Assembly: GCA_977020255.1 (NCBI GenBank)
Contig: CDROCS010000562.1
Location: 310,001-374,000, forward strand
Direction of reading: 5' to 3'
DNA from: Obrimoposthia wandeli
Taxonomy: Eukaryota
Length of the DNA stretch: 64,000 bases
Below are positions 460 to 34,622 of the stretch, piece by piece; positions within the stretch are counted from its first letter, which is position 1; each line of letters opens with the position of its first letter. The notes beneath the pieces are model-generated. The model saw only the letters and a list, made by a program, of their open reading frames with translations, did not search any database and was not told the DNA's origin. The position numbers were made by a program, and so were the translations under genes.

Positions 460-728
460 ATAAGAATTGTGAAATAAGATACAATAATAAGTAAATTGAT
501 ATCGTAAACGAATACATAATTGATAAGACAACGGATAATAGAAAAGGACCCGCGTATAATACTAGAAGACAAAGTCAGATTCCCAAGGAAGAGATAAATA
601 ATAATAAAGTTAACCGAATTGAACAGGTTCCCCAAACAGATAACGAAGTAACAGAAAAGACTAGAGTCGAAGAAAACGTATCAGAAAGAGACGTTGATCA
701 ATCAGCGGTTTCAACCGGCAGTTTTAAT

Positions 729-3269
729 TTGACTGAATTATTTGGTGACATAGACCCAGAAGAATATGAAATTGCCAATCCAGTAGTGATTGAGGAAGTT
801 CCATTGAATAATATTGAAGAAATAGTTGAAGATATAGTTGAAAATATGGCTCAACCAGGAGCTCAAGCAGAAAATAATGCAGGAAATAATGTAGGTGACA
901 TGAATGCCGAGCAGTTGGCACAAGCCATAAATGCGACGTTGAGACCCAATTTTTCAGGATCATTGCAGATTACAAAGTTTAAAGGAGATGAGGAAAGTAT
1001 TTGTGACTTCCTCGCAGAATATTCGAGTTGTGCAGATGTTCAAGGATGGAACGATAAAGAAAAATGTGTCCGAGTACAGGCACACTTAACCGGATTAGCA
1101 CTTGAAGTGTATAAACATTTGACAGAAGCAGAACGTTTAGACTGGCCAACGTTGGAAAATGCTTTTATTGGAAAATTGGTATTAGGAGACTTAGCCAAAG
1201 TAAATAAGCGACTCATGAGAGAACGGAAACAGAAACATGATGAAGGCGTGAATGAATACGCGTATGTTTTGAGAACCTTGGCCGCAAGAGCGTACCCAAG
1301 AAGAATAATGAGAAATCAGGACGGTAATCCTGTAGCTCAAGAAGCACAAGTAGCGGAAAATGACCGGAACCAAAATGAAATGGCAGAGGTTTTGTTAGAT
1401 ATATTTAGAGGAGGATTGAAAAAGGATATTAAAGTGTTATTAGCAGTATCGGATACAAATGATTTTGATAACGCCGTGCGAAAGGCGAGAGAGATCGAGA
1501 AAAATATAAAAAATAACGCAGCATTGGCAATTTACGCAATGACTGCAGGTGACGACGATAAGACAAAGGTATTTGTGAATAAAACAGAACCGAGTAATTT
1601 TCAGAATCGAAATTATGGACAAAATAAGTTTGAAAAAGTAGATGAATCCAGTAACGGAAATAGCGATAATTTCCGAAGTAGGAATCGAGATGATTCGAGA
1701 GGTAGAAATAATAGTGAGTCTTGGAACAGGAATCGAGATGATTCAAGAGGTAGAAATGGTAATGATTCGTGGAATAGAAATAGAGATGATTCCAGGAATA
1801 GATTTAATAGAGATAATTCAGGAAATCGCCAACCTTGGAGAGGAGACGATAGGAATTATAACGCCAACAGAGGAGAGCGAAGTGACTCTCGATTTGGAAA
1901 TAATACAGGAAGTAGTGACGGAAGATTCAATAATCGAGGAAGCGGTTTTGAATCGAATTTCCGAAGAAATGATTTTAGAGGACGATATGATAATAGACAG
2001 AATAGTCGTCGAGTGCAGTTCGAAGATGAACAAAATAAGATAGATATTCGAGGGAGAATAATGTGTTACACGTGTAAACAAATGGGTCACTATTCGAGAG
2101 ATTGTACGAGAAGTAAAGAGTTCGGAACTAACAGATTTGGAAATAATAATTTCGGTAATAATAATTTTGGAAACAATTATAGAGGATATAATTCACCTCC
2201 GCCATGGAATAGAGGTGGGGGATATACTCCACAGCCATGGAGACCGAATAATCAGTATACAGATAGACAACAGTCACCAGGTAGATACAATAACTATGCA
2301 GACAGACAGCAAGGAGCTGAGAGATACAATAATTACGTAGGACAGCAAGGAGCTGAGAGATATAATAATTCCGGTAAATATAATAATAATAATGTCGACA
2401 AGACAAATAGTCGTGAGAGTTCGCCGAAACCGAAGGGAAATTTTAGTTATGTAAGCGATGACAGCGATAGGAATCGTGAGACCGAACTTCGACGCGAAAT
2501 AGATTTTGAGGATAGTGATAGTAAATTTGAACGAATGTTGGGAATAATTAAAGATTCACCACATACAAAGATGGCGAATTCATCTACGTTGTCGAAACAA
2601 GCAAAAAGTCTACACTCGAGAGAAGAGATGAATGATTTAATGAATAAAATACTAGAAGCGTATGAGACACCAATAGAGAAAACGTGTAACGCACAACCTA
2701 TGACTGATCATGTAGAAGCAGCAAGAAATGCTATGAGTATGGAAAATGAAAAAAAGATAATTAGTGAAGCTAAGGAGACGTTGAATCAACCGTTAGATGA
2801 AACAAGTGAAGCTCCAGAAGTTTTGGCCAAATTGCAAACAATTAAAGTGCACAGATTGGAAGAAGTGCGAGCAGAATTGGTTAAACATAGTCATGATAAC
2901 TTGGGTTACAAAGAAGTACCACGAGGACTATTGAAAGGTTATGGTCGTTACGTACAGAGATCAAACCAAAAAGGAACGATGAAAATTTCGCTTCGATTAA
3001 TTTCCGGACAGATAATACATGAAAAACTTAACGTGTATCAGACAATGAAAACTATTCGGAAAAAGTTGGCAGAGAAACTTGAAATTGATGGAATGAATAT
3101 GTTGTTCCATTATAAAGGGAGATCACTAGATGATGAGGACGTACCAGTCAAGTGTGGATATCCGATAGGAAATGAATTAGAGGAAAAAATTGATGTCATC
3201 ACGGTAGGACGTCAAGAGTTAGTAGATAATGAAGGATTAACGGAGATATTAAATTCTGCGTTGGAATAG
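729..3269 (+). CDS. gag: ORF1: Gag (capsid-like domain, R/N/D-rich and N/Q/Y/G-rich low-complexity regions, CCHC zinc knuckle) with a C-terminal ubiquitin/SUMO-like domain
   Basis: FKGDEESICDFL..W..KEK..V..HLTG.AL..Y retrotransposon Gag pattern; knuckle CYTCKQMGHYSRDC; UBL-like MKISLRLISGQ...FHYKGRSLDDEDVP at 2979-3212. Frame is open from 495; 729 is a TTG and the first ATG is 846. Confidence 0.9.
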   Translation: MTELFGDIDPEEYEIANPVVIEEVPLNNIEEIVEDIVENMAQPGAQAENNAGNNVGDMNAEQLAQAINATLRPNFSGSLQITKFKGDEESICDFLAEYSSCADVQGWNDKEKCVRVQAHLTGLALEVYKHLTEAERLDWPTLENAFIGKLVLGDLAKVNKRLMRERKQKHDEGVNEYAYVLRTLAARAYPRRIMRNQDGNPVAQEAQVAENDRNQNEMAEVLLDIFRGGLKKDIKVLLAVSDTNDFDNAVRKAREIEKNIKNNAALAIYAMTAGDDDKTKVFVNKTEPSNFQNRNYGQNKFEKVDESSNGNSDNFRSRNRDDSRGRNNSESWNRNRDDSRGRNGNDSWNRNRDDSRNRFNRDNSGNRQPWRGDDRNYNANRGERSDSRFGNNTGSSDGRFNNRGSGFESNFRRNDFRGRYDNRQNSRRVQFEDEQNKIDIRGRIMCYTCKQMGHYSRDCTRSKEFGTNRFGNNNFGNNNFGNNYRGYNSPPPWNRGGGYTPQPWRPNNQYTDRQQSPGRYNNYADRQQGAERYNNYVGQQGAERYNNSGKYNNNNVDKTNSRESSPKPKGNFSYVSDDSDRNRETELRREIDFEDSDSKFERMLGIIKDSPHTKMANSSTLSKQAKSLHSREEMNDLMNKILEAYETPIEKTCNAQPMTDHVEAARNAMSMENEKKIISEAKETLNQPLDETSEAPEVLAKLQTIKVHRLEEVRAELVKHSHDNLGYKEVPRGLLKGYGRYVQRSNQKGTMKISLRLISGQIIHEKLNVYQTMKTIRKKLAEKLEIDGMNMLFHYKGRSLDDEDVPVKCGYPIGNELEEKIDVITVGRQELVDNEGLTEILNSALE

Positions 3270-3383
3270 ATAAAAACGCCTATAGAAATTTTAGACAGTT
3301 CAAGCGAAAGCGGAGATAATGATGTAGCTGAAGCTTGGAACAAGACATCCACACCAGAACCGTACGTAGCTGAATTACAAGAC

Positions 3384-6300
3384 ATGAATTTAGAAAATGA
3401 GTTGACAACTCCAGTGGTCGAGGTGCCACCAGAACCAGATATAATTCAAATCAGACAAGATGAAGTCACGGATACAGCTAATCAAGCGAGACAAAACGAA
3501 AACGTAACCCAACTAGTAGGAGAAGACGAAATCTCCGAAATTGTAGATTTAGATTCACCAATTTGGCATGCTGCATACAAAGATAGACAAGCAGAGCAGA
3601 TGATGCGACAAAATGAAGAGATTGGCCATGAAGAAGGACCAAGTCAAGAGATACAGTATAATGATGAACCGTATGATCCAGGAGAGAATCAAACTGAGTA
3701 TCAGTATTTTCGAAGAGGACCTGGAAGACCTAGAAAGGACGGAAGTATATTACGAAATGTTCTAACTGCACCACAAACTGATGAAGAGAGACATCTAAGC
3801 ATTGGACAGTTAGCAGCGTCATTAGAGCAGTATAGTGCAGAGAGGAATGAAGATATCAGAGGTGATATGAATTCAGAAGCTCCAAGTAGTAAAGATATAC
3901 TTACGGGAATTCTCAGGCAAGTGAAGCCGAAGTTGTTCAAAATGTACAGAGATGAAACAACCGATATAACAGACAATTTGACTAAAGCAGTTAGATCACA
4001 GATGTCTGCAGTAAAGAGAATGACCGCGAATCATGTATACCATGCATCGATAGATAGATTTTACGACGGTGAAGTTTTAGCGCGATTATGTGGAAACCAG
4101 ACTACAAATAAAAAGTTAATTACAGCAATCACATATCTATGTTTCCAATTGACGGAACGAACGAGCCAACCTCACGAAGTCAAACAAGGAATAAATGAAG
4201 CAATGTATCTGATCGAGAATGTATTACAGAGACGAATTGACGAAAACGGAGGTTGGGCAAAATTAAGTGACTACGCTAAAACCATTGTGGAAATGAATGA
4301 AGACGATGACGAACAATGTCATGAGAATCGTCAAAGAGAAAATAAACAATACCGTCCGAAAGAGAGAAACAATCAACCAAATATGTCCACAACAATGATG
4401 ATGATGATGTTAGTAATGTTCATGGGAATGCAACAGGCATCAGGACTGATAGCATACGACTGTAGCATACCAAAGATGGGACAAAAGTATTCACTGCTTG
4501 ACAGCGAAGACTGTCCAGAATCACAACCGTCAAAACTAGAAGTTAAAGGTGTTGAAAACTACTTTGTGTATCAGGATGTTGATAAAGTACAAGTAGAAGT
4601 GAAAGAATGTTCAATCCATTCAAGTTATCACGAATTCTATTGTGGCCATAGAAGTTTTATGTCGGAAATCACACCTACCACACCGTACAAAGCACATAAG
4701 GTTTTGCCAAGAGATTGCGAAGACGCATTTCGAACAGGAACAATAGAAGTAGACAAGAATTACAAACCTGATGTAAAAATTGGAGTGAGACGATACGAAA
4801 CAGTCACGAGAGTCGGACAACGATGGGCTGATGGATCTTGTGACGGAGGAACAAAAAACGTGCGTGGAACCAAAGTAACCGAGTTAGTAATGGACGTAAC
4901 TTACAAAATCGAATTAAAAACATGGACCGCCAATTTTGATAAAAAGACACAACTAATGATGAAGTATCCAGAATGTAAAATGACAGATACATCTTGTTTT
5001 ACAGGCGAATCCACAATTGTGTATCACGTGAATCCGAAACAATGCTCTTTAGTATTTTTGAAAGAGATTAGCTTTAACAAAATAAAAGGATTCCTGTATA
5101 ATAAAGATGGAGAAGGATTCCTGTATAATAAAGTTGGAAAAGGATTGCTCAATGAAACAAGACCAATTCCAATGACAAAGACACCTACACTGTTAATGGC
5201 AACATCAATAGAAGAAGGATTGATATTTATTAAAAAGAGAAACAAAGCGCGATGTGGAATGACTGTTAGTACTACAAACTATCCTGGAATAGTTTTGTCC
5301 AAAGAAGCAATAGCATTGGCAGAAACCAAGCTAGAACCTAGAGATATGCAGCTACACACGTATTTTAATAATAAAATTGATTTCTATTATCATAAAGGAT
5401 TGATGCAAATGGAACAGTTATATCGGATGATGATCGAAAGAGATTGCCAGCTAAACAAAGAGATCGTAAGAACAAAGTTAGCATTAGCTATTACGAATCC
5501 AGACATGGTAGCACCATTATTACCCTTGGATGAAGGAGTATTTGCTAAAACCATGGGAGAAGTATTGTATACTTACAAGTGTAATAAAGTAGAGGTACAG
5601 TTGAGAAAAACAGATCGATGTACGAGTGAATTGGCAGTAACGTATAATTTAAAAGATCTTTTTGTTGAACCAATCACGAGAATGATACTTCCAAAAGACA
5701 CTCCAACTAAAGAAATCAGCTGCTCTAATATAATGGCACCTGAATATCAGATGACGAATGATCTATGGATAACGTTACCTGATCGAAAGCCAACGAAAAC
5801 CCCAGCGATGATAAAAATGACGAATCTTAAAGGTAAAATGAAATTCGAAGCGGTGGAAAATATGGAGAACGCAGGATTGTACAATGAAAAAGATTTAAAA
5901 GCGGCGTGGAACGAAATAATGTTTCCAGTAAAAAGAGCCAGAGTACTTACGGAGATGGTACATCGAGCATTACCGCCAGGAGCTAGATATGCGAATTTTG
6001 ATATGTTATTATCGCCAAGTCATTTCAAGGAAGCAGCACATCAGACACTTAGAAAGATGTGGGGGAAATTCCTTGTTTTAGGACAACTATTTTCGGGTAT
6101 CATAGGTATTTATGTTATAATTAAATTTGTGCTGGTAATTATAGCCCAGGTGTTGTCTACGTATAGTTTATACAGGATAACCGGAATCACCTGGCAACTT
6201 ATAATTGGATGTTTTCCATTTTTAGCAAAATATCTAATGCACCATCATCACGAGAACGAGTTGCGAGCCCTCAAGAAGGAGCAACATCAAACGAGAACCA

Positions 6301-6986
6301 TGATACGAGACCCAAGAAATTATCGAGACGACAACGACGACGATAACGATAGTCCAGGAGTATATGCAAAGATACCAGGAAAACCAAAGATTCCGTTACC
6401 AGACAAGGAAGAAGTGGCGTTAAACCTATACCCAATGAAGGAACTAAAGGAAGAGAAGGAAAAGTTCAAGAGAGGCATTTTAATGATAAGATGGCCTAAA
6501 GTGAGCTACAGTGAGATTCCACAAGCAGAGGAAAAAGACAAAAAAGATAATTCCAGAAGAATTCTGAAGTCTAGGATATCAAATGAGAATCCAAATGCTC
6601 CACCCCAAGTAGCAGTAACATTGAACGGAAGAGAATATCTTGCCGAAGTTGATACTGGATCCGCAGTATCAGTACTGAGTAAAGAAATCTTGTCATCAAA
6701 AGAATTAAGAGAAGTATGTCCTAGAAAACAGACATTTGTTAACGTAAATGGTACAGATGTAGTGTCGGAAGGAACACTGAAATGTTCATTGAATATCGAT
6801 GGAAGAGCATTGCAGTTAAGTGCTAGAATATTCACAGATTGCGGTAGTCCAGTCATGATTGGGATGGACGTAATAAGAATGTTTGAAGGAATAATTATAC
6901 TACCAAACAACAAGAGTTATAAGAATGACAGTTCAGTGAGAGAGATAAAAATGTTGAGAGGACCTATAGTCGAAAAGAAAAAATAA
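3384..6986 (+). CDS. env: ORF2: acidic N-terminus + AT-hook + Bcl-2-like domain + internal signal peptide + chuvirus-type (class III-like) envelope glycoprotein + TM + retropepsin 1
   Basis: RRGPGRPRK (3711-3737); IDENGGW BH2-like motif (~4236-4256); signal MSTTMMMMMLVMFMGMQQASG then LIAYDC (4446); Cys-spaced ectodomain motifs DGSCDG, RCGMTVSTTNYP, RDCQL, GEVLYTYKC; TM ~6070-6236; protease VDTGSAVS (DTG 6651-6659). Confidence 0.85.
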   Translation: MNLENELTTPVVEVPPEPDIIQIRQDEVTDTANQARQNENVTQLVGEDEISEIVDLDSPIWHAAYKDRQAEQMMRQNEEIGHEEGPSQEIQYNDEPYDPGENQTEYQYFRRGPGRPRKDGSILRNVLTAPQTDEERHLSIGQLAASLEQYSAERNEDIRGDMNSEAPSSKDILTGILRQVKPKLFKMYRDETTDITDNLTKAVRSQMSAVKRMTANHVYHASIDRFYDGEVLARLCGNQTTNKKLITAITYLCFQLTERTSQPHEVKQGINEAMYLIENVLQRRIDENGGWAKLSDYAKTIVEMNEDDDEQCHENRQRENKQYRPKERNNQPNMSTTMMMMMLVMFMGMQQASGLIAYDCSIPKMGQKYSLLDSEDCPESQPSKLEVKGVENYFVYQDVDKVQVEVKECSIHSSYHEFYCGHRSFMSEITPTTPYKAHKVLPRDCEDAFRTGTIEVDKNYKPDVKIGVRRYETVTRVGQRWADGSCDGGTKNVRGTKVTELVMDVTYKIELKTWTANFDKKTQLMMKYPECKMTDTSCFTGESTIVYHVNPKQCSLVFLKEISFNKIKGFLYNKDGEGFLYNKVGKGLLNETRPIPMTKTPTLLMATSIEEGLIFIKKRNKARCGMTVSTTNYPGIVLSKEAIALAETKLEPRDMQLHTYFNNKIDFYYHKGLMQMEQLYRMMIERDCQLNKEIVRTKLALAITNPDMVAPLLPLDEGVFAKTMGEVLYTYKCNKVEVQLRKTDRCTSELAVTYNLKDLFVEPITRMILPKDTPTKEISCSNIMAPEYQMTNDLWITLPDRKPTKTPAMIKMTNLKGKMKFEAVENMENAGLYNEKDLKAAWNEIMFPVKRARVLTEMVHRALPPGARYANFDMLLSPSHFKEAAHQTLRKMWGKFLVLGQLFSGIIGIYVIIKFVLVIIAQVLSTYSLYRITGITWQLIIGCFPFLAKYLMHHHHENELRALKKEQHQTRTMIRDPRNYRDDNDDDNDSPGVYAKIPGKPKIPLPDKEEVALNLYPMKELKEEKEKFKRGILMIRWPKVSYSEIPQAEEKDKKDNSRRILKSRISNENPNAPPQVAVTLNGREYLAEVDTGSAVSVLSKEILSSKELREVCPRKQTFVNVNGTDVVSEGTLKCSLNIDGRALQLSARIFTDCGSPVMIGMDVIRMFEGIIILPNNKSYKNDSSVREIKMLRGPIVEKKK

Positions 6987-6998
6987 ACTACGTTCCGT

Positions 6999-9900
6999 AT
7001 GGGAAATTCGTACCAAGACAAAAAACAGGAAGCGCTAGTAAAGTCGATACTTCACTACAAAAACGTAAACCTCGGACCACAAGAGATGACGAGGAGGAAA
7101 ATAACATATGTGAATCTGTCAGAAAAGGATCCCATGAGATTCGAGAAAAAGAGACGAAATATATTAGAACTGTACTATTCAAAAGAAATGGCACGTAAAA
7201 TGGCAAGATCAGGTTTAGAAATGTTAAACGCGACAAGCAGTTATGGTCATGAGATAGTAGTACGATGCGTATTGTGTAGAGTAAAGTTTAGAGAGTGGGA
7301 AAAGAATGAAAACCCAATGAGACGTCATAAAAGAGATGCACCAAATTGTCCATTTCTTTTGAAACTGAAAACGTCAAACGTACCAGAAATCCAAAAAGGA
7401 AAAGCACCCGATTTCGATTACAGTGACGAGATTCCAAAAGGAGAATCAGCTCTAATAGTAGGCAGAGTAGTAACAAATAGCCGAATTGAAGACATATTCG
7501 AAGTTATGCGAGAAGTGAACGAATGTGACGAACAGTATCGAGAAATAACTTTCGAAGATCCAAGACTTAAAAAATTGGCAAAAAAGGGACTTTTTGCTAT
7601 AAAAAAGGATGGTAAAGACGTAATTAAATGCCACAAGTGTAAAAAAGAACGAATTATCGACAGATATACTCTTGAGCTGCCTAAGAAAATTTTACATCAT
7701 GAATTTTGCGAGTTTTGTATGTTAAAAAACAAAATAAAGCAAAAAGAACAGAAAACCGAATGTATAATCGAATACCAAATCACACGGAAAGAGATCTTGG
7801 CTCAACAGGACACACCGGTAGTGTCATTCGTGAGAAGGTTATATCCAAAAGAAGCAGAAAGAATCAGAGAATTGGTAGAATTAAAAATAAAAACTACGCG
7901 AAACGGATACGGATCGATTTTTGAATTACTGCGAGATAAAGATGACAGTACAATTGAAACAAAAGAGAAAGAGTACATAAATGAACTAGAATACGTACTA
8001 GAAGATCCGGAATGCGCAGTTTGCATGGTCAACAAAATAGAAGTTGCCTTTCTACCATGCGGACATGTAAGAACATGTCGGAGATGTGCGAACGAAATGG
8101 TATCATGTCCAATTTGTCGAAGAATAATAGATCGACAAGTGAGAAACATTAGATTTCACTATCCAAACAAAGGAAGTGGACCGACAGAGTGTAATAATTC
8201 GATAAATACAATATACCATATGGGAAATATAAATGGAGCACAGCGACCAGCAGCTATCATTAGAGTAAATAATTTAAGAGTAAAAGCCTTAATTGATACA
8301 GGTGCTGTAGCTTCGATAGTAAGTGAAGACTGTTTGACAGAAGAACAGAAACGAACAATGGCAGAACCAGATGAATTCTTGGTATCGGTCAATGGAGACC
8401 CTGTTAAAGTGACGGGAATATTACCATGTACATTTATAATTGGACGTAATACGATCACTATACCCGTTAGAATCATGAAAGAATGTCCTGAACCTACAAT
8501 TTTAGGAATGAATGTACTATCTCAACTTAAAGGAATAAGTATTGATTTACAAGATCCAAGATTGAAGGATAGCACATCAAACAGACAAATAAACCAAATT
8601 GATGTAATTATAGAGAATCCTATAAAAATCGGAAAAAGATCACAATTTCTCATTCAAGGTCACACCTTATCAGAAGATAAAGGACCAGTTGTGTTCGAAC
8701 CATCACGAGATTTCATAGAGAAATACGAATTACCAGTTGTAAGTACAGTATGTCTGATTGAAAATCACAAAATACCAGTTAGACTGATGAATACAACCAA
8801 CAATGACATCCTATTATACAGAGGGATGAGGTTTGGAAAGATAGCACAGATGGAGAATCCCACCATGTGTGCTATGAAACTCGATAAAGATACGAATGAT
8901 TACGAAGAAATAGTAATCCAATCAGAAAGACTGACAACTAGAGAAAAGAAACAATTACTTGATCTAATACATAAATTTCCGAAAGTAATTGCAAAAAATC
9001 CATATGACATAGGAGAAACACCTGTCATAAAACATACAATACCACTGACAGAAGACAAAGTAGTCAGAAGAAGACCATATCGAGTACCATTACAGTTACA
9101 AGATGAAGTAAAAAGTCAGATCGAAGATATGTCTAAAACAGGAGTAATTAGACCGAGTTTTTCGCCATTCTCAGCACCTGTGGTGTTGGTAAAAAAGAAG
9201 GATGGGAAAATGAGATTCTGTATAGATTTCAGAGAACTGAACAAGATCACAAGAAAAGATGTGTATCCATTACCTAGAATCGAAGAGATGCTCGATACAT
9301 TGGGTAATTCAGATTTTTTTACAACATTAGATTTGCAGAGTGGATACTGGCAAATCGAGATAGAGGAAGAGGATAAACACAAAACAGCCTTTTCCTGCGG
9401 AGATGGATTATACGAATGCGAAAAGATGCCATTCGGACTGACAGGAGCTCCAGCAACATTTCAGCGTTGCATGAATTTTGTACTCGCATCGTGTGCAAAC
9501 ACGATGGTTTATATCGATGACATAATAATATTTTCGAAAACGTTCGAAGAACATTTAAAAAATCTTGAAGTTGTATTTAAAAGACTGGAAAACGCTAAAT
9601 TAAAAGTTAAACCTACAAAATGCGAATGGGCTAAAGAGCGAGTAACATTTTTAGGACATATAGTATCGAAAGAAGGCATTCGACCTAATCCAGCAAAGAT
9701 CGAGAAAGTAAAAGCGCACTTAGCGCCAAAGACTGTTAAGGAAATACAGAGTTTTTCAGGTCTTGCGAACTATTATAGACGATTTGTTGAACATTTGTCA
9801 GATATAGCAACACCATTGAGAAAGTTGACGAGGAAAGATAAGAAGTTCATATGGGGAGAAGAAGCACAACAAGCGTTCGAGCATTTAAAAGAAAGACTGA

Positions 9901-11666
9901 TAAAAGCACCAATATTAGGGTTTCCAGATATAAATCGAAAATTCATACTAATGACAGATGCAAGTAACTATGCTGTAGGAGCAGTATTGGGACAAGAGGA
10001 TGACGAAGGAAGAGAACACGTCATCGCGTATGCGAGTAGAGGATTAAACAGAGCCGAAAGAGGATACTCTGTTATCGAAAAGGAATGTCTAGCCATAGTG
10101 TATTCATGTAGACAGTACAGACACTATTTGCTAGGACAAAAAGTATTCCTGTATACAGATCACAAACCACTACAGTTCTTATATAAACATAGAGATGAGA
10201 TGAGTAGATTAAACAGATGGTTTCTAAAATTGGCCGAATTCGATCTAGAAATCCGTTATAGAACCGGAAAGTCGAACGGCAACGCAGATTGTTTGTCGAG
10301 ATTGACAAATGTAGACGAGAAAGGAAACATAATTCCAGAAGAAGATGAAACCAATGACCAAAAAGGAGAAGCAAATCTACTGACGATTTTGCTAAAGACG
10401 GGTAAAATAGACAAAGAGATCATCAAAGAACAGAAAGAAGATGAAGAACTGAGTCTAATCAAAGAATTGTTGGTGAATGGAGACCTAAACGATGAAATGA
10501 CGAAAAAATACTCGATAAAAGAAGGAATCTTGTATATTGTCAATAATGTCGGAAAGATAGTAGTAGTAATTCCGAAGTCATTGAAAACAGCAGTGATGAT
10601 CCAGTATCACGATGGAACACTAGGAGGACATCTGTCAGGGCGAAAGACAATAGCCAGAATCAAAGAGAAGTACCATTGGGATGGTATGGAAGACGACATA
10701 AAACAATGGTGTAAACAATGTAAAGTATGTTTAACCAGAAAAGACACCGGAACTCGTACTAAAGTTCCACTGAAACCAATGCCAGTTCCCTTGGCACCAA
10801 TGGAATTCACAGCGATGGATATATTGGGATCATTGAGAGAATCAAGTAAAGGAAACAAGTACGTCATAGTATTTACGGACTACATGACGAGATGGGTAGA
10901 AGCATATCCCATGCAAAACCAGAAAGCTGAAACAATAGCGCAAATCTTAGTGGAAGAGATAATATTTCGATACGGAGTGCCTAGAAAGTTGTTAACGGAT
11001 CAAGGTAAGAACTTCACTGGAGAAGTCATAAAAGCAGTATCGAAGATATTCGGAATCATGAAGTTACAAACTTCACCATATCACCCACAAACAGATGGTC
11101 TAGTAGAAAGGTTTAATAAAACTTTATGTATGATGGTACAATCCTATTGCTCAGACAAGCAAGAGGATTGGGATAAATATTTACCTTCATGTTTATATGC
11201 TTACAGGAATTCAGTTCGAGAGGCGACGGGTCACACACCATTCTATCTGATGTATCTCAGACAGAACAATATGCCGATGGATCTGGAGTGGACCCAGCCA
11301 ACATCTCAGTATCTAGAAACTGAACAATACATTGTCGTCATGAAGGAAAGATTACAAGATGCTTGGACCAAAGCCGGATTGAAGTTGAAATTCAATCAAG
11401 AAGGTTACAAGGAACAATACGACAAAAAAGCAAAACCACATGAATTTAGAGTCGGAGATCAAGTGATGATATTTTATCCAGTCATCGAACCAGGTCTATC
11501 GTTTAAACTGCATAGACCATACAAAGGACCATACAAGGTGATCCAAACAACCTCAACAAATTTGAAAGTAATCAACGAAGAGAATCGGAACAAGGAACCG
11601 ATGATTGTACATGCAAATCGATGTAAATTAGTACCAAATAAAGATAACACGTCACGATATGAGTAA
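6999..11666 (+). CDS. pol: ORF3: IAP module (BIR, degenerate BIR, RING) fused to Pol (retropepsin 2, dUTPase-like spacer, RT, RNase H, integrase)
   Basis: BIR C-x2-C-x16-H-x6-C at 7266-7349; RING CAVC..PCGH..C..C..CPICR at 8013-8132; LIDTGA (8295); RT LDLQSGYWQ, MPFGL, YIDD (9510-9521); RNase H TDAS..GAVL, TDHKPL; integrase H..GH..C..C, MDILG, TDQG, ERFNKTL, GPY. Confidence 0.95.
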   Translation: MGNSYQDKKQEALVKSILHYKNVNLGPQEMTRRKITYVNLSEKDPMRFEKKRRNILELYYSKEMARKMARSGLEMLNATSSYGHEIVVRCVLCRVKFREWEKNENPMRRHKRDAPNCPFLLKLKTSNVPEIQKGKAPDFDYSDEIPKGESALIVGRVVTNSRIEDIFEVMREVNECDEQYREITFEDPRLKKLAKKGLFAIKKDGKDVIKCHKCKKERIIDRYTLELPKKILHHEFCEFCMLKNKIKQKEQKTECIIEYQITRKEILAQQDTPVVSFVRRLYPKEAERIRELVELKIKTTRNGYGSIFELLRDKDDSTIETKEKEYINELEYVLEDPECAVCMVNKIEVAFLPCGHVRTCRRCANEMVSCPICRRIIDRQVRNIRFHYPNKGSGPTECNNSINTIYHMGNINGAQRPAAIIRVNNLRVKALIDTGAVASIVSEDCLTEEQKRTMAEPDEFLVSVNGDPVKVTGILPCTFIIGRNTITIPVRIMKECPEPTILGMNVLSQLKGISIDLQDPRLKDSTSNRQINQIDVIIENPIKIGKRSQFLIQGHTLSEDKGPVVFEPSRDFIEKYELPVVSTVCLIENHKIPVRLMNTTNNDILLYRGMRFGKIAQMENPTMCAMKLDKDTNDYEEIVIQSERLTTREKKQLLDLIHKFPKVIAKNPYDIGETPVIKHTIPLTEDKVVRRRPYRVPLQLQDEVKSQIEDMSKTGVIRPSFSPFSAPVVLVKKKDGKMRFCIDFRELNKITRKDVYPLPRIEEMLDTLGNSDFFTTLDLQSGYWQIEIEEEDKHKTAFSCGDGLYECEKMPFGLTGAPATFQRCMNFVLASCANTMVYIDDIIIFSKTFEEHLKNLEVVFKRLENAKLKVKPTKCEWAKERVTFLGHIVSKEGIRPNPAKIEKVKAHLAPKTVKEIQSFSGLANYYRRFVEHLSDIATPLRKLTRKDKKFIWGEEAQQAFEHLKERLIKAPILGFPDINRKFILMTDASNYAVGAVLGQEDDEGREHVIAYASRGLNRAERGYSVIEKECLAIVYSCRQYRHYLLGQKVFLYTDHKPLQFLYKHRDEMSRLNRWFLKLAEFDLEIRYRTGKSNGNADCLSRLTNVDEKGNIIPEEDETNDQKGEANLLTILLKTGKIDKEIIKEQKEDEELSLIKELLVNGDLNDEMTKKYSIKEGILYIVNNVGKIVVVIPKSLKTAVMIQYHDGTLGGHLSGRKTIARIKEKYHWDGMEDDIKQWCKQCKVCLTRKDTGTRTKVPLKPMPVPLAPMEFTAMDILGSLRESSKGNKYVIVFTDYMTRWVEAYPMQNQKAETIAQILVEEIIFRYGVPRKLLTDQGKNFTGEVIKAVSKIFGIMKLQTSPYHPQTDGLVERFNKTLCMMVQSYCSDKQEDWDKYLPSCLYAYRNSVREATGHTPFYLMYLRQNNMPMDLEWTQPTSQYLETEQYIVVMKERLQDAWTKAGLKLKFNQEGYKEQYDKKAKPHEFRVGDQVMIFYPVIEPGLSFKLHRPYKGPYKVIQTTSTNLKVINEENRNKEPMIVHANRCKLVPNKDNTSRYE

Positions 11667-11714
11667 AGATCACAGAAATCGAAGCCGAATACCAATACCA
11701 TTAAACTTACACGA

Positions 11715-14700
11715 ATGGTAAGTGATCGGAACTACATAAACATGATGACGAGTGGTAGCGAGGAAAAACCAGCGAGAATTGGTATGCTCAGAATGAAGCA
11801 CCAAGAGGAAAAGGAAGTAATCCGACACATCGCACCACAAGAGATATTAGAAGAAGATGAAGAGATAATAGTTGTTTTCGAAAAAACACAACCAACAGAT
11901 GTGGCTAAAGAAGTCATTGTGAAAGATGCACTGACAAACGAATTTCTGTGCGAACTTAGAGTGTCATACTACGACGGAAATACATTAGTCGCAGCACTAT
12001 ATCAAAACTCCAATGTGTTTACGACTGAGAAAGTGATAATCGAAATCACATTGACACCAAACATAGTTGCATGGCAGAACTATGACAGTACTGAAGCAGG
12101 ACTAGCCAGTCAGGAAGAGAAGGAACCGGCCGGTGGTCACATACTGCATGGTACACCAAAAAGACTCAAACAAGAATACCACGATGTAATAATGGTATTA
12201 CGTAATTCACATGGGAAAAGAGATATCATGAGAGTTCATTTAATCGACGCAGACACCGAAAAGATAATTTGTCAGATGGACACCAAATATTTTGACGGAA
12301 AGACAATTGTATGTTGTATACCAGAATCTCACCGGTTAGACACAGATCAAACGGAAGTATCTGTAAGGTTGAGTGTAATAGAAGGATTTCATTCGCCAAA
12401 CCAACCGGAAGTGGCTAACAATAAAATCATCAAAGCAACGGCAGAGTTACGCATTGACAGTGGATACCGGAAGTGGGAAGCTAAAAATAAAAAACCACAA
12501 AGAATCAATATGATCCGAGAACAAGTGACCAACTCAATCCAGCCAAAATATCATGCTGAAATAGTATCATCCGCGCCAAGTGTGATTACATCGATAAACG
12601 ACGAAATTATAATTTTACTAAAAAATCGATGGCCGTCATCAACCGAGATACGAGTAAATTTAATTAATTATGCGAAAACACCGATATCTAAGCTGAATGT
12701 TATCTATTTTGATGGATTGTCCATCATGGGTAAATTGGAAACAATTGTCATGTGCTATGGAGCACAGTTCCAAGTTGAGATACTTAAAGATAGCGTAATA
12801 CCGTATCCGATTCACAAATACGAAGGGGAAATCAATCCAATTATTCTAACCCCTTCATTAATTTCAGTTCAGACAGACATACCAGAATACCCTTCGAGCG
12901 AGTCTAGTCAAGACAGCGAACCAGAAAGTAACGATACAGAATCAACAGAATCCGAAGATAACATGATAGAGCGATTCGGAAAAACCATGGAGGTTGAATT
13001 CGCTAAAGAGAGCAGAAAAAGACAAAACATAGAATTCGTGAAACAGAATATACAAGAAAGACGAATTAAATCTGCAGAAGAGACCGAGTCGGAAGAAGAC
13101 TCAACAAAGGAACAGACATCAGAGACAAAGATGAATATCTCTCCAGCAATACGAATGCTGAGAGGGAAGAAACTGGCAAAACTATCCAACATCGACGAAC
13201 AGATAGAGAAGAGATTAGAAAGACTAAAACTTGAAGAGTCAGAATTATTGCCACCAATGAGCGAGATCATTCCAGATAAGTTATACCTCGGAAATGTGGA
13301 AGATGCAACAGATGAAAAGAAACTGTTGGAACAAGGGATAACATACGTGATCAACGTTACAATGAATCACAAATCGCAATATCAGACAATCAGAGCTATG
13401 ACATTAGGATTAAAAGACTCAATGGACGCTAATCTTCTCGAATGGTTCGTAGAAACAAACGAAATACTTCACAGAGAACTCCGAAACCAAGGAAAAGTGT
13501 TGGTACATTGTCAGAAAGGAATTTCTCGATCAGCAACTCTAGTATTAGCATATCTAATAAAGACTAGACGAATGCAGGTACTAGAAGCGCTAAAATACCT
13601 ACAGGAGAGAAGAAGTATTGCAAACCCAAATCTTAATTTTTTGGGACATTTGGCAAATTACCAACTTCTGTTGCAAGAACAAAGACGGATGGACGACATT
13701 CCTGAGGATCCAAAGGAAAAGAATTTCCTCCAAGCATTATCGTTGACCGGGTTATTCTTAGCCGGAGTCGACAAAATTACACAGATAATGCCAAAAGTAT
13801 TTTTATGTCATCCGGGAGATATAGATACTGCTGGATTAAAGTTCCACAGTATCAACCGAGTAATCAACATTGTTGAAGTCGGAAACGAGATAATTAGTCT
13901 GTGTCAAAATACTGAAGACGACACCACTCGATACATACATGCTTCTAATCGAGAGATAAACGATGCACAACAACATCTGACGAAATTGACTCAAACCATC
14001 CAAGCCGAAGTCACAGAAGGAAACGGCGTTCTGATATATCAGAAAAAAGGTACGATGTTAGCGCCTACCATAGGTGTATCCTTGTTGGTAGAGTACCATG
14101 GTCACACGCCAGAAGAAGCGATGGTCTACATCAAACAGAATAGACCAGATACGGAATTCAAACCGTTACTCGTTCGAGAAATAGAGAAGTACGCCGAAAA
14201 GAGGAAACAGCAACGAGAAACAAATGAAGCTACAACAACAGTGCCCAGCTTTCAATACCAAAGATTGCTAGCGATAGGCTTGTTAAGTTGTCTAATGCCG
14301 ATAACGGGAGCACAAGAGATAGGCTCCAACCACGGAAATAGTTCCTGGTTCAACGAAATCCACAACTACACCATACAGTACCATACGCAGGCACTGATGA
14401 TGCTATTAGTGTTGTTAGGATTAATTGATGTATGGATCATCCGAAAATGTCTCCAATCTATGAGAACCGACAGTAAAAGATTTCAGTTTGTAAAGATGAA
14501 AAGACCAAATGGACCAACGAACAAAGTGCTTGTGTATCTAGACGAAAGGATCGAGGACAACATAGTAAATGAAGCGATATTTTACCCACAAAACAGAATA
14601 CTGAATCAATTCCGAATAGATTACGAAGCTGACCGACAGCGCACACTTGACCGAATATCAACAACATTCGCCGGATGCAAGCGAAGAAAACGAATTGTAA

Positions 14701-16928
14701 AGGAAATACAAAAAGATGCTGATACAAAAGGACCGACGTATATATTCGACGGCGATGTCATCAAAACACGTGAGTATGGAAGTAAGAGAGTGATAATAGA
14801 AACGATGGAAGGACATAAAACATGCTTGTCCGCTAAAAATGGATTCGGAAAGTTGATGATACAAGGTAAACAGGTACAGTTGATTATCGGAAGAAATGGA
14901 ATCGAGGAGATGTCAAAACAACGACAGACAACAAAACGATCCAATCAGAAACAGATATCTCTCAAACGATTGATAATTAAAACCCTTTGCAAAAGGTCAG
15001 TCAAGGCCCTGTGCACCGTTGCACAAGGATTGATCTACGGAGTAGTAATTGGATTAGTACTACAAGCCATGCCAACCAGTAAAGCTGAAATGATGACATT
15101 ATACGAGTATAATCTACATTTGAGAAATCTAGACAACACCCTCGAAATAATCAAGACGTCCCACAGTAAAGCCGTAAGGATCATGTGTGTAAAAGGATGT
15201 CCAGGACGAATGTGTATAGTTCCAGCGACCGAAATGAAAACACTTAATGGACATTATGGAGTTAGTATTGTCACATGTGAAGACTACACATTTGGACAAA
15301 CTAAAATAGTACTTCTCAGTGACATGTCCAACCAAAGTGCACACAAATTTAAAATATTAACCATCAAGAGTAAAGGAATACCAGCAGTACGTTATGGTAT
15401 TCTAGAATTGGTTAATCCAATACTCGCACTGATCATTGGATTCATAATATTAATATTACTCATCTTGTTTTGTTGTACAAAGATAGAGTTGAGATCAAAA
15501 AAGAAACGTCATGATCTCGCAAGACGAACAGGTCAAATGAATTTACAAAAATTCAACACAAGTATACCAAGACCACCATTTCTAGATGAACCAGCACCGG
15601 AGTACCAGCCAACGATATATGAACATATCGAGGAAAGACCGTACTATATGAGTAATCTGAGTTGTTTCATTGAAATTCCTGAGTTTAGGAATCGAACGAT
15701 CATAGGAATCATGCTGATCATACAAATTACCACTACCAAGGCTAGTTATGAAATCATGATCAGTAAATGGAGACAAGATGTAATACGGGCGTTATACATA
15801 GAAATCCCTCTATTAAAAACAAATCACGTAGTAGACATTCATCTACAGACGTCAGCAACCGACAATATCGATCAGAAATTGTATGTCATCCGACAGGTCA
15901 GAATAAAGATCGACAAAAGTACACCCGATTACAACTTAATATTATTCTATCATGAAAGAGTGTTATACCTACGGATAACGATATCAAAAAGGAAGCGGAT
16001 TATCCAAAGTATCCGAACAAAGTCATTAATATTGCCTAGAGATGAGCGCATCTGGAAAATTGTCGACAGGATTATGATCACAGGTAGACGACGTAAAGCC
16101 GTATGGAATTCCGTTAGAATATTTTTCAGATTACTAGAAACTGACAAAGTAACAGTATCGTGTCCCAATCCAGATGGCGGAATCAGATTCGAAATCCAAA
16201 ACCAAATGTTAGTACCACATTTTGATACAGAATGTCTGTGTAATCGAATTCCCAGTAACACTACAGAGACCTCAACCATAATCATGGTAATAACAGGTGA
16301 AATATTCTACATAACTCTAAGATACCAGAACCGTCGATTTCGTAGATCCGGTATAAGTATCAAACCCAGGAAAATCATTCCCAAAAAACCAATCCTAGTC
16401 AAAAAGAAGGCAAAGATAAACGAAAGTAAACCCCATTCCAAAAAGCCGAACGTGATCAGAACAAAGACAGAAGCGAAAGAAAAAGAGCTAAATTCCAGAA
16501 ACCAAAGTACAGTTATTAAGAGGACAAGAGTGAGGGGAACGATCCCACTAGATCCCAAACATCATTTCCAATCCAAAATAATAATACCTGTTCTACCAGA
16601 AACAAAACACCCAAATCCACGAATTTTTAGAAAATCGGACATAATACATGGAAACCGATCAAAACCCATGGAAATGTCATTCGAACCGACAAACAACAAA
16701 ATGAAGTATGATTATCAATCATCAGATAGCGGAGTAACAGCGGTCAATGCTCTAATTGGAATGGCCGTAGTGTCAACAGCAGTGGTTCTATTGACAATCG
16801 TGTGCGTGAAAGGCAGTCAAGTATGCCCAAGAATACGACGAAAATGCGAAGGATTGCGATGCTGTGACAAACCCACCATGGAGGAAGTGGAATTGCGACC
16901 CTTACCTCCGCCTCCCATCAAGATATGA
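11715..16928 (+). CDS. ORF4: accessory polyprotein with 3x IPT/TIG-like repeats, dual-specificity phosphatase, inactive phosphatase copy, and several signal-peptide/TM modules
   Basis: Three ~80-aa repeats with a Y(Y/F)DG core; DUSP IIPDKLYLGN...VLVHCQKGISRSAT (HC at 13506); second DUSP-like domain with VLIYQKKGTMLAP; six hydrophobic segments; ends TGA TAA. Confidence 0.85.
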   Translation: MVSDRNYINMMTSGSEEKPARIGMLRMKHQEEKEVIRHIAPQEILEEDEEIIVVFEKTQPTDVAKEVIVKDALTNEFLCELRVSYYDGNTLVAALYQNSNVFTTEKVIIEITLTPNIVAWQNYDSTEAGLASQEEKEPAGGHILHGTPKRLKQEYHDVIMVLRNSHGKRDIMRVHLIDADTEKIICQMDTKYFDGKTIVCCIPESHRLDTDQTEVSVRLSVIEGFHSPNQPEVANNKIIKATAELRIDSGYRKWEAKNKKPQRINMIREQVTNSIQPKYHAEIVSSAPSVITSINDEIIILLKNRWPSSTEIRVNLINYAKTPISKLNVIYFDGLSIMGKLETIVMCYGAQFQVEILKDSVIPYPIHKYEGEINPIILTPSLISVQTDIPEYPSSESSQDSEPESNDTESTESEDNMIERFGKTMEVEFAKESRKRQNIEFVKQNIQERRIKSAEETESEEDSTKEQTSETKMNISPAIRMLRGKKLAKLSNIDEQIEKRLERLKLEESELLPPMSEIIPDKLYLGNVEDATDEKKLLEQGITYVINVTMNHKSQYQTIRAMTLGLKDSMDANLLEWFVETNEILHRELRNQGKVLVHCQKGISRSATLVLAYLIKTRRMQVLEALKYLQERRSIANPNLNFLGHLANYQLLLQEQRRMDDIPEDPKEKNFLQALSLTGLFLAGVDKITQIMPKVFLCHPGDIDTAGLKFHSINRVINIVEVGNEIISLCQNTEDDTTRYIHASNREINDAQQHLTKLTQTIQAEVTEGNGVLIYQKKGTMLAPTIGVSLLVEYHGHTPEEAMVYIKQNRPDTEFKPLLVREIEKYAEKRKQQRETNEATTTVPSFQYQRLLAIGLLSCLMPITGAQEIGSNHGNSSWFNEIHNYTIQYHTQALMMLLVLLGLIDVWIIRKCLQSMRTDSKRFQFVKMKRPNGPTNKVLVYLDERIEDNIVNEAIFYPQNRILNQFRIDYEADRQRTLDRISTTFAGCKRRKRIVKEIQKDADTKGPTYIFDGDVIKTREYGSKRVIIETMEGHKTCLSAKNGFGKLMIQGKQVQLIIGRNGIEEMSKQRQTTKRSNQKQISLKRLIIKTLCKRSVKALCTVAQGLIYGVVIGLVLQAMPTSKAEMMTLYEYNLHLRNLDNTLEIIKTSHSKAVRIMCVKGCPGRMCIVPATEMKTLNGHYGVSIVTCEDYTFGQTKIVLLSDMSNQSAHKFKILTIKSKGIPAVRYGILELVNPILALIIGFIILILLILFCCTKIELRSKKKRHDLARRTGQMNLQKFNTSIPRPPFLDEPAPEYQPTIYEHIEERPYYMSNLSCFIEIPEFRNRTIIGIMLIIQITTTKASYEIMISKWRQDVIRALYIEIPLLKTNHVVDIHLQTSATDNIDQKLYVIRQVRIKIDKSTPDYNLILFYHERVLYLRITISKRKRIIQSIRTKSLILPRDERIWKIVDRIMITGRRRKAVWNSVRIFFRLLETDKVTVSCPNPDGGIRFEIQNQMLVPHFDTECLCNRIPSNTTETSTIIMVITGEIFYITLRYQNRRFRRSGISIKPRKIIPKKPILVKKKAKINESKPHSKKPNVIRTKTEAKEKELNSRNQSTVIKRTRVRGTIPLDPKHHFQSKIIIPVLPETKHPNPRIFRKSDIIHGNRSKPMEMSFEPTNNKMKYDYQSSDSGVTAVNALIGMAVVSTAVVLLTIVCVKGSQVCPRIRRKCEGLRCCDKPTMEEVELRPLPPPPIKI

Positions 16929-17050: not shown

Positions 17051-17350
17051 ATGTCCGAAGAATGCCCAATATGTTTGGAAGATCTAACCGAACGAAGAAC
17101 AAGACCCGAAACCTGCAACCATTTACACCACGAGGAATGTTTATCGACATGGATCAGAACTTATGGACAGTTCGGACATCCAACATACCCTTGTTGCCCT
17201 GTATGCAGAAGACAATTCGCAAGATTCATCATGTTAGAACCCAACCAAGAGGATGTATATGTACAGGTGGTATTCTGTTGGAAGAATTTCGGAGAGTGTT
17301 GGTGTTACTACTGTTTGTCAGAACGACAAAATCCGACCACTTTTGTGTAA
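17051..17350 (+). CDS. Small RING-H2 protein 1 (putative E3 ligase) with C-terminal Cys motif
   Basis: CPIC...CNHLHHEEC...CPVC gives C3H2C3; tail CWKNFGECWCYYC. Confidence 0.85.
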   Translation: MSEECPICLEDLTERRTRPETCNHLHHEECLSTWIRTYGQFGHPTYPCCPVCRRQFARFIMLEPNQEDVYVQVVFCWKNFGECWCYYCLSERQNPTTFV

Positions 17351-18598: not shown

Positions 18599-19324
18599 TA
18601 ACATTACATTCTTTCCTCCCTTCTTTCCTTCCTAATTCCTTACTTATCTATGTAGCCATTTTGTGTATAAGTAATAAATTAGTGAATATTTGAGACTCTG
18701 TCCAAATGTTCACTTTTTTAGAAAAAACCGAGTTTCTTTTAAAAGTTTTGGGCATGTTTGATGAATTGAATGACTGATTTTGTAGGGATGGACCTAAAAT
18801 CAACAGCCAGAGGCTTATAAGAGTAAAATCGATACGTTCCGGGGACGTAACTTTTTTGGAACCCCCGAGATATGTTAGATTTAGGAATTGAGAAATTATT
18901 AAAAAAATTAAATAATTTATACTAAAATAAAATCCTTGAAAGCAAGGTTGAAAATTAAATATTTAAAATTAAGTTAAAATATTAGAGGATAAAATCAGGG
19001 GTAAATATTAATAGGACCACGAAGGTCGTGTGTAGTGTGTCGTATATATAGGTTAAGATTATTAATACAAAAGTGCAAAATAAGAATAAGACTTAATTAG
19101 GGGAAACTAAGAAGAAAAATCAAGAAAGAAATTAATCAAGGAAAGAAGAAATTATCGTTTAATTTTCCACCTGCCAAATTGTTTCGGCGCAGCACTCGTT
19201 ATATCGACTATTGTGTTTTCAGCTGTCTAGGATCGACAGTAGCGCTCGAGCCTAAGAGGAAAAAAGTAATTAGATTAAATCTATAAATTTTACTTAATTG
19301 CTTAGCAGCTGATTTTATATCGAC

Positions 19325-19404
19325 TATATAAGTCGCCCCAATCAATTGTCAGAAAAAGAAAGGATTCTAGCCGAGACACACACAGCGGAAAAGAGCTGGT
19401 AAGC
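19325..19404 (+). promoter_or_regulatory. TATA-like box and downstream 5' splice donor in the putative LTR
   Basis: TATATAA at 19325-19331; CTG|GTAAGC with GT at 19399-19400. Confidence 0.45.
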
Positions 19405-19487
19405 GTGTCTAATTTGAGTTAGATTAATTCCGGCATTTTTATAGAAATCTGAAATTTACCAATCCTGAAATATTTACCCATCCTGCC

Positions 19488-19883
19488 ATCAATTTGAATC
19501 CAGTATTATCAATTTGAATCCAGTATTATCAATTTGAATCCAGTATTATCAATTTGAATCCAGTATTATCAATTTGAATCCAGTATTATCAATTTGAATC
19601 CAGTATTATCAATTTGAATCCAGTATTATCAATTTGAATCCAGTATTATCAATTTGAATCCAGTATTATCAATTTGAATCCAGTATTATCAATTTGAATC
19701 CAGTATTATCAATTTGAATCCAGTATTATCAATTTGAATCCAGTATTATCAATTTGAATCCAGTATTATCAATTTGATCCAGTATTCTCAATTTGAATCC
19801 AGTATTATCAATTTGAATCCAGTATACTCAACTGCATCCAGTATACTCAACTGCATCCAGTACGCTCAGCTGAATCCAGTTTG
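19488..19883 (+). repeat. 20-bp tandem array (~20 units) inside the LTR
   Basis: atcaatttgaatccagtatt x14 perfect (19488-19767), then progressively diverged units. Confidence 0.98.
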
Positions 19884-19957
19884 CTCTACCGATCCCGCGC
19901 CAGCCGATCTCGAGACTAGAAAACGTAAGAGAGATTAGTAGGGCCAAGAGTTGAGGG

Positions 19958-20483
19958 TTACCCATTTTCTGATTTACATTAATTTTGGAAAAATTGAAAG
20001 TTACCCATTTTTGATTTACATTAATTTTGGAAGAATTGAAAGTTACCCATTTTTTGATTTACATTAATTTTGGATAAAATTGAATTACCCATTTTCCGAG
20101 TTACATTAATTCCGGATAACATTGAATTAACCATTTTCTGATTTACATTAATTTTGGATAAAATTGAATTACCCATTTTCCGAGTTACATTAATTCCGGA
20201 TAACATTGAATTAACCATTTTCTGATTTACATTAATTTTGGATAAAATTGAATTACCCATTTTCCGAGTTACATTAATTTCGGATAACATTGAATTAACC
20301 ATTTTCTGATTTACATTAATTTTGGATAACATTGAATTACCCATTTTCTGAGTTACATTAATTTCGGATAACATTGAATTAACCATTTTCTGATTTACAT
20401 TAATTTTGGATAACATTGAATTACCCATTTTCTGATTTACATTAATTTTGGATAAAATTGAATTGCCCATTTTTTGATTTACA
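19958..20483 (+). repeat. 42-bp tandem array (~12.5 units) with partial 84-bp higher-order structure
   Basis: Variants ttaaccattttctgatttacattaattttggataaaattgaa and ttacccattttccgagttacattaattccggataacattgaa alternate. Confidence 0.97.
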
Positions 20484-20745
20484 ATAATTATTGATATAAA
20501 GATAAAAGTTTACCCTCCAAGTAGTAAAGTTGACATTAAAGTTAAATTGATTGAAAAAGCTATAACTTGAGCTTATTCGCGAGTTAGAGGAACGACTCTA
20601 AAAAACTCGACTAACTTTACATAAAATCGATACGTGGTTCATCCCCACTTTTTGTAGAGACTTACAGAAGTCTTAGGAATTTTTACTATACTTTTTAGAA
20701 AATACGTACATAAACGTATTGTTGTGTTCAGTTTAGTGTGCTACC

Positions 20746-20751
20746 AATAAA
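20746..20751 (+). terminator. Polyadenylation signal in the putative LTR
   Basis: AATAAA ~150 bp before the inferred LTR end. Confidence 0.4.
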
Positions 20752-20904
20752 CGATTTCCTACATTAGAACACGTTGTTTTTAAACCCTTCAGATTAAGAG
20801 ACGTCAAACCAAACACCTTCAGATAAGAAAAAGAGATAACACTAAACCATAACACTAAGTAGGCCACGACCAACTTTAAGACCTGCTTCTATTCGAACTC
20901 ACGT

Positions 20905-20916
20905 TGGGGCTCTCCG
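20905..20916 (+). promoter_or_regulatory. Degenerate primer-binding site (tRNA-Pro-like)
   Basis: TGGGGCTCTCCG resembles TGGGGGCTCGTCCG, the complement of the tRNA-Pro 3' end; it directly follows the inferred LTR end. Confidence 0.5.
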
Positions 20917-21049
20917 CACATAAGAGGATCTATACAAGTCTCGTATAGAAACCCCAACAAAATAATTAAGAGAGAATAAGATATATAAAAACAGAATTGA
21001 ATTAAGAATACGATAAGTAATAAGTGAATTAATACGGGAATAAGTAAAT

Positions 21050-34483: not shown

Positions 34484-34622
34484 TACCAGGAGACCAAAAC
34501 AATAATAGATGTCAGGATATTTTGTAGTATTTGAAGATAACGAACAAATAGTTGGTTTAGTGTCTAAATAATTTTAAAGATGAGAATGTTCTTTGCACAG
34601 CTATAGTAACGACATACACCTC

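Follow-up and report, generated by a model that had tools for sequence, protein, structure and literature searches.

The window analysed here comprises 64,000 nucleotides of Obrimoposthia wandeli (contig CDROCS010000562.1, abbreviated C562, positions 310,001 to 374,000, forward strand). It contains an env-like gene whose host element is an LTR retrotransposon of 23.6 kb in total, with an internal region of 19.5 kb and a 5' LTR lying upstream of the window (Table 1). The coding region forms one long frame, which in the window's copy is interrupted by stops at 3267, 6984 and 11664, all three outside env; these single stops separate the same-frame ORFs 495-3269, 3270-6986, 6987-11666 and 11667-16928 (+ strand), and a full polyprotein cannot be made from this copy without readthrough. 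The domains follow the order Gag (with one CCHC knuckle), ubiquitin-like, Bcl-2-like, env, protease, BIR plus RING, second protease, RT, RNase H, and integrase; after integrase come two DUSP domains, four hydrophobic segments, and then three RING ORFs.

Comparison of the two LTRs over about 1,050 bases outside the tandem arrays revealed 4 differences in total, with none in 598 bases (one gap) at one end and 4 in 450 bases at the other. In the 5' leader (C562 about 309470 to window 454), repeats of ~49 and ~111 nt are arrayed in tandem. The tRNA-Met genes of this genome form tandem arrays on contigs C2252 and C2837, with a spacing of ~284 nt on C2252 and 55 pattern matches genome-wide. The element has inserted into an older relative, within the 5' leader of the latter: the downstream flank (window 20960-21479) shows 76% identity to the inserted element's own leader and gag start, the upstream flank (C562 about 307050-307373) looks like the end of an LTR together with a primer-binding site that has decayed, and both flanks scored well over 30 shuffles.

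Elsewhere in the window, an uninterrupted ORF of 557 codons (23328-25001, + strand) resembles a family-2 GPCR with a somatomedin-B-like N-terminus (Atlas 0.96) and is likely a host gene; it gave no pointer to the identity of the host. A short element of ~180 nt, seemingly internally palindromic and possibly a MITE, is present in two near-identical copies (34314-34487 and 42391-42579). The fragment at 47862-48332 (+ strand) resembles, by eye, a pogo/Tigger DDE transposase.

Table 1 Features of the element, in positions of the window unless a contig is named.
Feature	Position	Strand	Evidence or remark
5' LTR	C562:307377-309414, upstream of window		2,038 nt, TG...CA ends
Target-site duplication	flanks element		4 bp, AAAT
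Primer-binding site for tRNA-Met	after 5' LTR		complementary to 3' ends of tRNA-Met(CAT) genes of the same genome
Single frame, 5,360 codons from Met 846	846..16928	+	gag-Ubl-Bcl2-like-env-PR-BIR-RING-PR-RT-RH-IN-DUSP-TM part
Gag, capsid-like region	1080..2108	+	Retrotrans_gag E 0.008, below cut-off
Gag CCHC knuckle, one	2064-2108	+	zf-CCHC E 9e-6
Ubiquitin-like domain	2991..3143	+	PF00240 E 0.004, below cut-off
Bcl-2-like domain, directly upstream of env	4068..4256	+	PF00452 E 0.066, weak
Internal signal-peptide-like segment before env, inside the long ORF	4383..4445	+	hydropathy peak 2.15 (11-aa window)
gB/class III-type, chuvirus-like env ectodomain	4446..6062	+	PF24664, AF2 model, Foldseek, VIA-align
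Env transmembrane anchor, single strong TM segment	6063..6173	+	KD peak 2.71
First aspartic protease, on predicted cytosolic env tail	6609..6878	+	PF13975 E 8e-6; DTGS at 6651
IAP-like module	7185..8135	+	BIR 7185-7358 (E 5e-9), RING 8004-8135 (E 2e-11)
Second BIR, weak	about 7551-7649	+	E 0.012
Ty3/Gypsy pol	8241..11663	+	second protease (DTGA 8295), RT (YIDD 9510), RNase H, integrase
Possible IPT/TIG-like repeats after integrase, lead only	11715..12860	+	ESM Atlas 0.88 (mark 0.9)
Two dual-specificity phosphatase domains	13281..14200	+	PF00782 E 4e-39, two stretches; second end approximate
C-terminal part, four further hydrophobic segments	14382..16826	+	hydropathy
Three short accessory RING-finger ORFs	17051-17350, 17411-17716, 18068-18598	+	zf-RING_2 E 3e-9, 1e-8, 2e-7
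3' LTR	18873..20959	+	2,087 nt, TG...CA, with 20-nt and 42-nt tandem arrays

The env region (4383-6240) matched the Pfam family PF24664 (Monjiviricetes_fusion) with an E value of 2.4e-95 and 320 bits against a curated cut-off of 27, a profile match that far exceeds chance. The preliminary description, made from the letters of the window, had proposed a chuvirus-like, gB/class III-related glycoprotein with a signal peptide and a terminal TM segment, and every motif that it quoted was found in the + frame ORF 3270-6986: LIAYDC at 4446, followed by SLLD..DC, VKEC...YCG, DGSCDG, RCG....TNYP, YFNNK, RDCQL...NPD, and GEVLYTYKC, with the signal-like stretch opening at Met 4383 and the TM segment at 6063-6173. 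When aligned with its relatives, a hydrophobic stretch ending right before an x-A/G-Y/F-D-C start was observed in 13/13 polyprotein relatives and in the 6/6 other homologues checked, and the TM segment was conserved in the six polyprotein relatives and two stand-alone homologues shown. Both calls are based on hydropathy and alignment, and signal cleavage ahead of the ectodomain is predicted from them. The ectodomain contains one N-glycan sequon and 14 cysteines. A search of env for a furin-type R-x-x-R site found none; according to the part of PMC13524379 available, gB-type env proteins do not always retain such sites.

The AlphaFold2 model of env, built from a 96-sequence alignment, reached a mean pLDDT of 89.4, whereas the single-sequence fold (pLDDT 33) was unusable. 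Foldseek against viral models placed chu-like and related G proteins on top (E 5.6e-44, TM up to 0.68), with ~20% identity between env and the top chu-like matches. Against solved structures, herpesvirus gB accounted for all 40 of the matches listed (best E 1.6e-13), and VIA-align ranked HSV-1 gB first (Z 10.0, 421 aligned residues, rmsd 8.2), its best five matches all being gB with Z values of 7-10. At the sequence level, an env profile run against PDB sequences gave 37 matches, 36 of them to herpes gB and all weak (E 0.016 or worse), and phmmer searches of env against the PDB yielded chance matches only. A trimer prediction of env residues 310-540, with the alignment not used, scored 0.20 against a mark of 0.32. 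The best structural matches are fusion-type glycoproteins, in line with the family first named for this gene; by its modelled fold, the env protein is a gB/class III-type glycoprotein, which suggests a fusion activity. Likenesses to the G proteins of Chuviridae/Monjiviricetes and to herpesvirus gB extend over the fold, the cysteine frame, the central helix, the signal, and the C-terminal TM segment, with identities of ~20% and 10-13%, respectively; those proteins are stand-alone, whereas env here is embedded in a polyprotein.

For the remaining domains, the weak Bcl-2-like assignment has a counterpart in the relative P0005, where such a domain occupies the same position (E 0.001). The pol region matched PF00078, PF17917, PF17919, PF17921, and PF00665. 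A spacer is present between protease and RT, within which no Pfam match to a dUTPase-like or other domain was obtained; the dUTPase-like domain of Burro elements was assigned by HHpred (PMC6431247, available part). Pfam likewise gave no match in the candidate IPT/TIG-like region, no family at cut-off in the C-terminal part, and no MATH or ankyrin match at E 0.1 in the four main ORFs. The motif HCQKGISRS is located at 13506 in the first DUSP domain, and the motif search did not find it in the second.

The order of domains in pol had been used in the preliminary description to call the element Gypsy, and env had been placed between gag and pol. The placement was borne out, since env follows the CCHC knuckle (2064) and precedes protease, RT, RNase H, and integrase. 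The order PR-RT-RH-IN is, however, common to Gypsy and BEL/Pao and does not tell them apart; sequence tests discriminate instead, and they lead to the same assignment. Pol carries Gypsy-type RNase H and integrase families (PF17917, PF17919, PF17921), its best solved match is Ty3-G Gag-Pol (E 1e-131), and no Pfam match to Peptidase_A17, DUF1759, or DUF5641 was found in the element at E 0.1. RT-RH identity to six env-bearing Gypsy polyproteins was 51-60%, whereas against eight BEL/Pao loci of the same genome it was 22-38% over short stretches, with E values of 0.005 or worse. In an RT tree whose BEL/Pao rows were the five of these eight loci with a usable RT motif, and which held no named Gypsy row, the five BEL sequences separated from the element at 100/100. 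Paired LTRs, a primer-binding site, and a target-site duplication are all present, as for Ty3/Gypsy (Metaviridae). On these sequence comparisons, the element is Ty3/Gypsy and not BEL/Pao.

HMMER retrieved 1,362 env homologues at E 0.001, whereas word-index protein searches returned no match with env alone and one with the alignment. Closest to the window's env (30-43% identity) are long polyproteins of up to 4,844 aa with the order env-protease(-RT-IN), and env, protease, and RT follow one another within the single proteins P0151, P0002, P0006, P0009, P0014, and P0015. In the env tree, for which 126 of 152 rows were kept, the window's env fell into one clade (17 rows, support 0.998) with the envs of retroelement polyproteins. 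Outside this clade were stand-alone homologues of ~650 aa (22-28% identity) and a BEL-type env, P0021, which is linked to DUF5641 and follows it, i.e. lies 3' of pol. Most of the stand-alone homologues looked up are unlabelled, so that the tree neither tells viral G apart from retroelement G nor shows which way transfer went. Several aspartic protease domains were observed in the related polyproteins P0151, P0002, P0003, P0004, and P0011, with seven matched stretches in P0151. The Burro-type env-pol polyprotein P0006 is deposited under a Flavobacteriaceae bin name and is probably a mis-binned animal contig.

A search of the genome with env gave 2,900 first-look candidates, and all 40 scored places were at least 99% identical; 34 of the 39 places other than the window were examined as copies. 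The positions of the three inner stops were sense in all other copies with letters there (33/33 at 3267, 33/33 at 6984, and 32/32 at 11664), while the terminal stop at 16926 was common to 29/29. Scattered private breaks occurred in most copies, with 96 stop events at 91 positions, and open frames of more than 4,000 codons surround env elsewhere in the genome (68 scored of 20,251 candidates). Because the inner stops are sense elsewhere and such long frames exist, the family design is one giant ORF, of which the window holds a damaged copy. Programmed readthrough or a changed genetic code was considered for the three stops and rejected, since they are absent from the other copies. The earlier picture of env in frame within a polyprotein, with predicted cytosolic domains on both sides, accordingly applies to the family but not to the window's copy, which is a young insertion carrying three stops of its own and, as a whole element, is probably dead. 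In sequence terms the family is one of high copy number that has recently spread. Among copies 98% identical in the coding region, only the LTR ends were alike (~200 nt at 76-81% and 370-470 nt at 86-90%); the LTR middles of copies L013-L028 could not be aligned with window 18873-20959, and those seen hold tandem arrays. In the copy at C704:114920-119436, the first 826 nt of env are present in three extra tandem repeats, either a real duplication or an assembly artefact.

Selection was counted in the window and 30 other copies; the remaining 4 of the 34 were excluded because they had many indels or low identity. Env variants common to at least three copies comprised 30 silent and 5 replacement changes (pN/pS 0.04), whereas private variants comprised 50 silent changes, 61 replacements, and 5 stops (pN/pS 0.34); these ratios are uncorrected for transition bias, and env divergence is biased downward because resemblance to the window's env was the criterion for choosing copies. 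Shared variants were 30 silent and no replacement in RT-RH, 35 silent and none in integrase, and gave a pN/pS of 0.19 in the gag capsid. Met 4383 was retained in 34/34 copies and the 14 ectodomain cysteines in 33-34 of 34. The counts indicate that env is under purifying selection among the copies, which could partly reflect the need of the whole polyprotein for correct threading and processing.

The arrangement has close counterparts in the literature, cited here from the available parts of each paper. In planarian Burro elements, env lies in frame between gag and pol, with matches to mononegavirus fusion glycoproteins and a proposed tie to gypsy Env, whereas in errantiviruses env usually has an ORF to itself (PMC6431247). 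Burro/GYPSM1 and the present element share a single ORF of ~5,000 codons (4,873 and 5,140 aa in Burro, 5,360 here), a Gag with CCHC, a Ubl followed by a Bcl-2-like domain, env between Bcl-2 and protease, BIR, accessory ORFs, tandem repeats, and high copy number (PMC6431247); the order Ubl, Bcl-2-like, env, protease is present here together with BIR, the Ubl and Bcl-2 matches being weak. The present element is smaller (23.6 kb with 19.5 kb internal, against more than 30 kb with up to 25 kb internal) and carries one CCHC instead of two to three (PMC6431247). Its env is clearly of the gB/class III type, whereas Burro env was linked to gypsy Env, and its two DUSP domains, two proteases, and three downstream RING ORFs are absent from the Burro description in the available part of PMC6431247. 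The MATH and ankyrin domains of S. mediterranea Burro1 were not matched here, and MATH placement varies among Burro host species (PMC6431247). The element is Burro-type; strict membership of Burro1-4 is not claimed, given that neither MATH nor ankyrin was matched and that the comparison with named Burro elements is by description and not by tree.

Gypsy elements with a gB-type GAG-ENV-POL arrangement have been described in Nematoda, Bryozoa, and Platyhelminthes; six of them are from S. mediterranea, at 1-215 copies each, and in arthropods chuvirus-like G occurs beside gypsy pol (PMC13524379). Smed_errantivirus_1-6 resemble the present element in their Gypsy pol, gB-type env before pol, flatworm host, and many near-identical copies; by eye, the eight domain I-II cysteines of the window's env match the S. 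mediterranea C1a rows, but the sequence, again by eye, is clearly distinct from all six S. mediterranea rows (PMC13524379). The available main text of that paper nowhere uses the terms 'polyprotein', 'single ORF', or 'in-frame', and topology is not treated there. The mosquito Anakin elements carry the same glycoprotein family within an LTR element but on a BEL/Pao backbone (PMC7642597). Burro1 is reported from Geoplanidae and Dugesiidae (PMC13465017), and in S. mediterranea it is expressed and PIWI-controlled (PMC8532177). The novelty implied for the gag-env-pol arrangement is thus not upheld; the arrangement is real but already described (PMC6431247, PMC13524379). What is new is the family, in a host that is probably another flatworm than those reported. 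The cargo of two phosphatase domains and three RING ORFs, with no MATH or ankyrin match, may be new as well, although further Burro cargo lists may already include phosphatases or RING ORFs.

As far as COX1 indicates, the host lies outside the three flatworm species of PMC13524379. The multi-copy COX1 of the assembly is a better fit to the flatworm than to the invertebrate mitochondrial code, shows 66-71% identity to named triclads, and clusters with triclads and prolecithophorans at 0.96; finer placement is unsupported and the link to the window's contig is indirect. The host is likely a flatworm, and probably a triclad. Many near-identical stretches in flatworm mitochondrial code lie in large contigs (C109, C2590, and others) and are likely nuclear insertions. 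A COX1 contig grouping with a snail (C5352) was set aside as likely food or contamination. Stop-free, bacterial-looking COX1 genes and the snail-like mitochondrial contig indicate that the assembly is mixed.

We consider it probable that the env of this Burro-type giant Ty3/Gypsy element, in frame with gag and pol, is a likely gB-like (class III) fusion protein cut from a membrane-threaded polyprotein. From general membrane-protein biology, the internal signal would send the env ectodomain into the ER lumen, and signal peptidase would split Gag-Ubl-Bcl2 from Env-Pol, with the signal stub keeping Gag anchored to the membrane. The TM segment would bring the chain back to the cytosol, leaving Pol attached to the tail of Env until cleavage by the aspartic proteases of the element freed it. 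Gag, Env, and Pol would then be brought together at one membrane and bud from it in enveloped particles, which Env would fuse into other cells. Enveloped particles and fusion would be the likeliest purpose of env.

Several other readings were weighed. Env might arise chiefly as a protein of its own, translated from Met 4383 of an RNA that is spliced or has an internal start, with the full polyprotein a minor product. The methionine begins the signal and is kept in every copy examined, and errantiviral env usually has its own ORF (PMC6431247, available part); however, several relatives lack a Met at the head of the signal, and with no stop after the TM segment the product would continue into protease and pol, which makes this reading unlikely. 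We regard as improbable, too, that Env serves as a membrane scaffold anchoring Gag and Pol, or fuses intracellular or neighbour-cell membranes without free particles. The in-frame design would demand a folded luminal domain for Pol production whatever the fusion activity, the cargo (BIR, RING, Bcl-2-like, phosphatases) suggests manipulation of the host cell, and the BIR-RING module of Burro1 is reported, at second hand, to protect stem cells (PMC13465017, available part), yet a full gB-like fold, 14 cysteines, and a low pN/pS are more than a spacer requires.

That a chuvirus glycoprotein was recently inserted into the element, or that a BEL/Pao element was misread as Gypsy, is refuted by the comparisons above and retains a very slight probability. 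Chu-like G proteins are the best viral structural matches, BEL/Pao capture of chuvirus G is published (PMC7642597, available part), and the genome holds many BEL/Pao copies. Against this, env is only ~20% identical to viral G and clusters with retroelement polyprotein envs, far from P0021, while both the RT-RH identities and the lack of Peptidase_A17, DUF1759, and DUF5641 matches set the backbone apart from BEL/Pao.

Returning to the gB-like env cut from a threaded polyprotein, a wider proposal would make Burro-type elements enveloped retroelements of flatworms, infectious from cell to cell, with Pol packaged via the cytosolic tail of a class III Env and not via Gag, a flavivirus-like polyprotein cut by signal peptidase, and the present family extending such elements to a flatworm lineage beyond those reported; taken as a whole, we offer it tentatively and hold it to be rather doubtful. 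To the published picture, as far as the available parts show it, the present analysis adds purifying selection on env during the spread of the family and an internal signal conserved across diverged polyproteins. It also bears on the packaging of Pol in a chain where Gag and Pol lie on either side of a luminal domain, and it makes testable whether Gypsy elements with a gB-type env form infectious particles.
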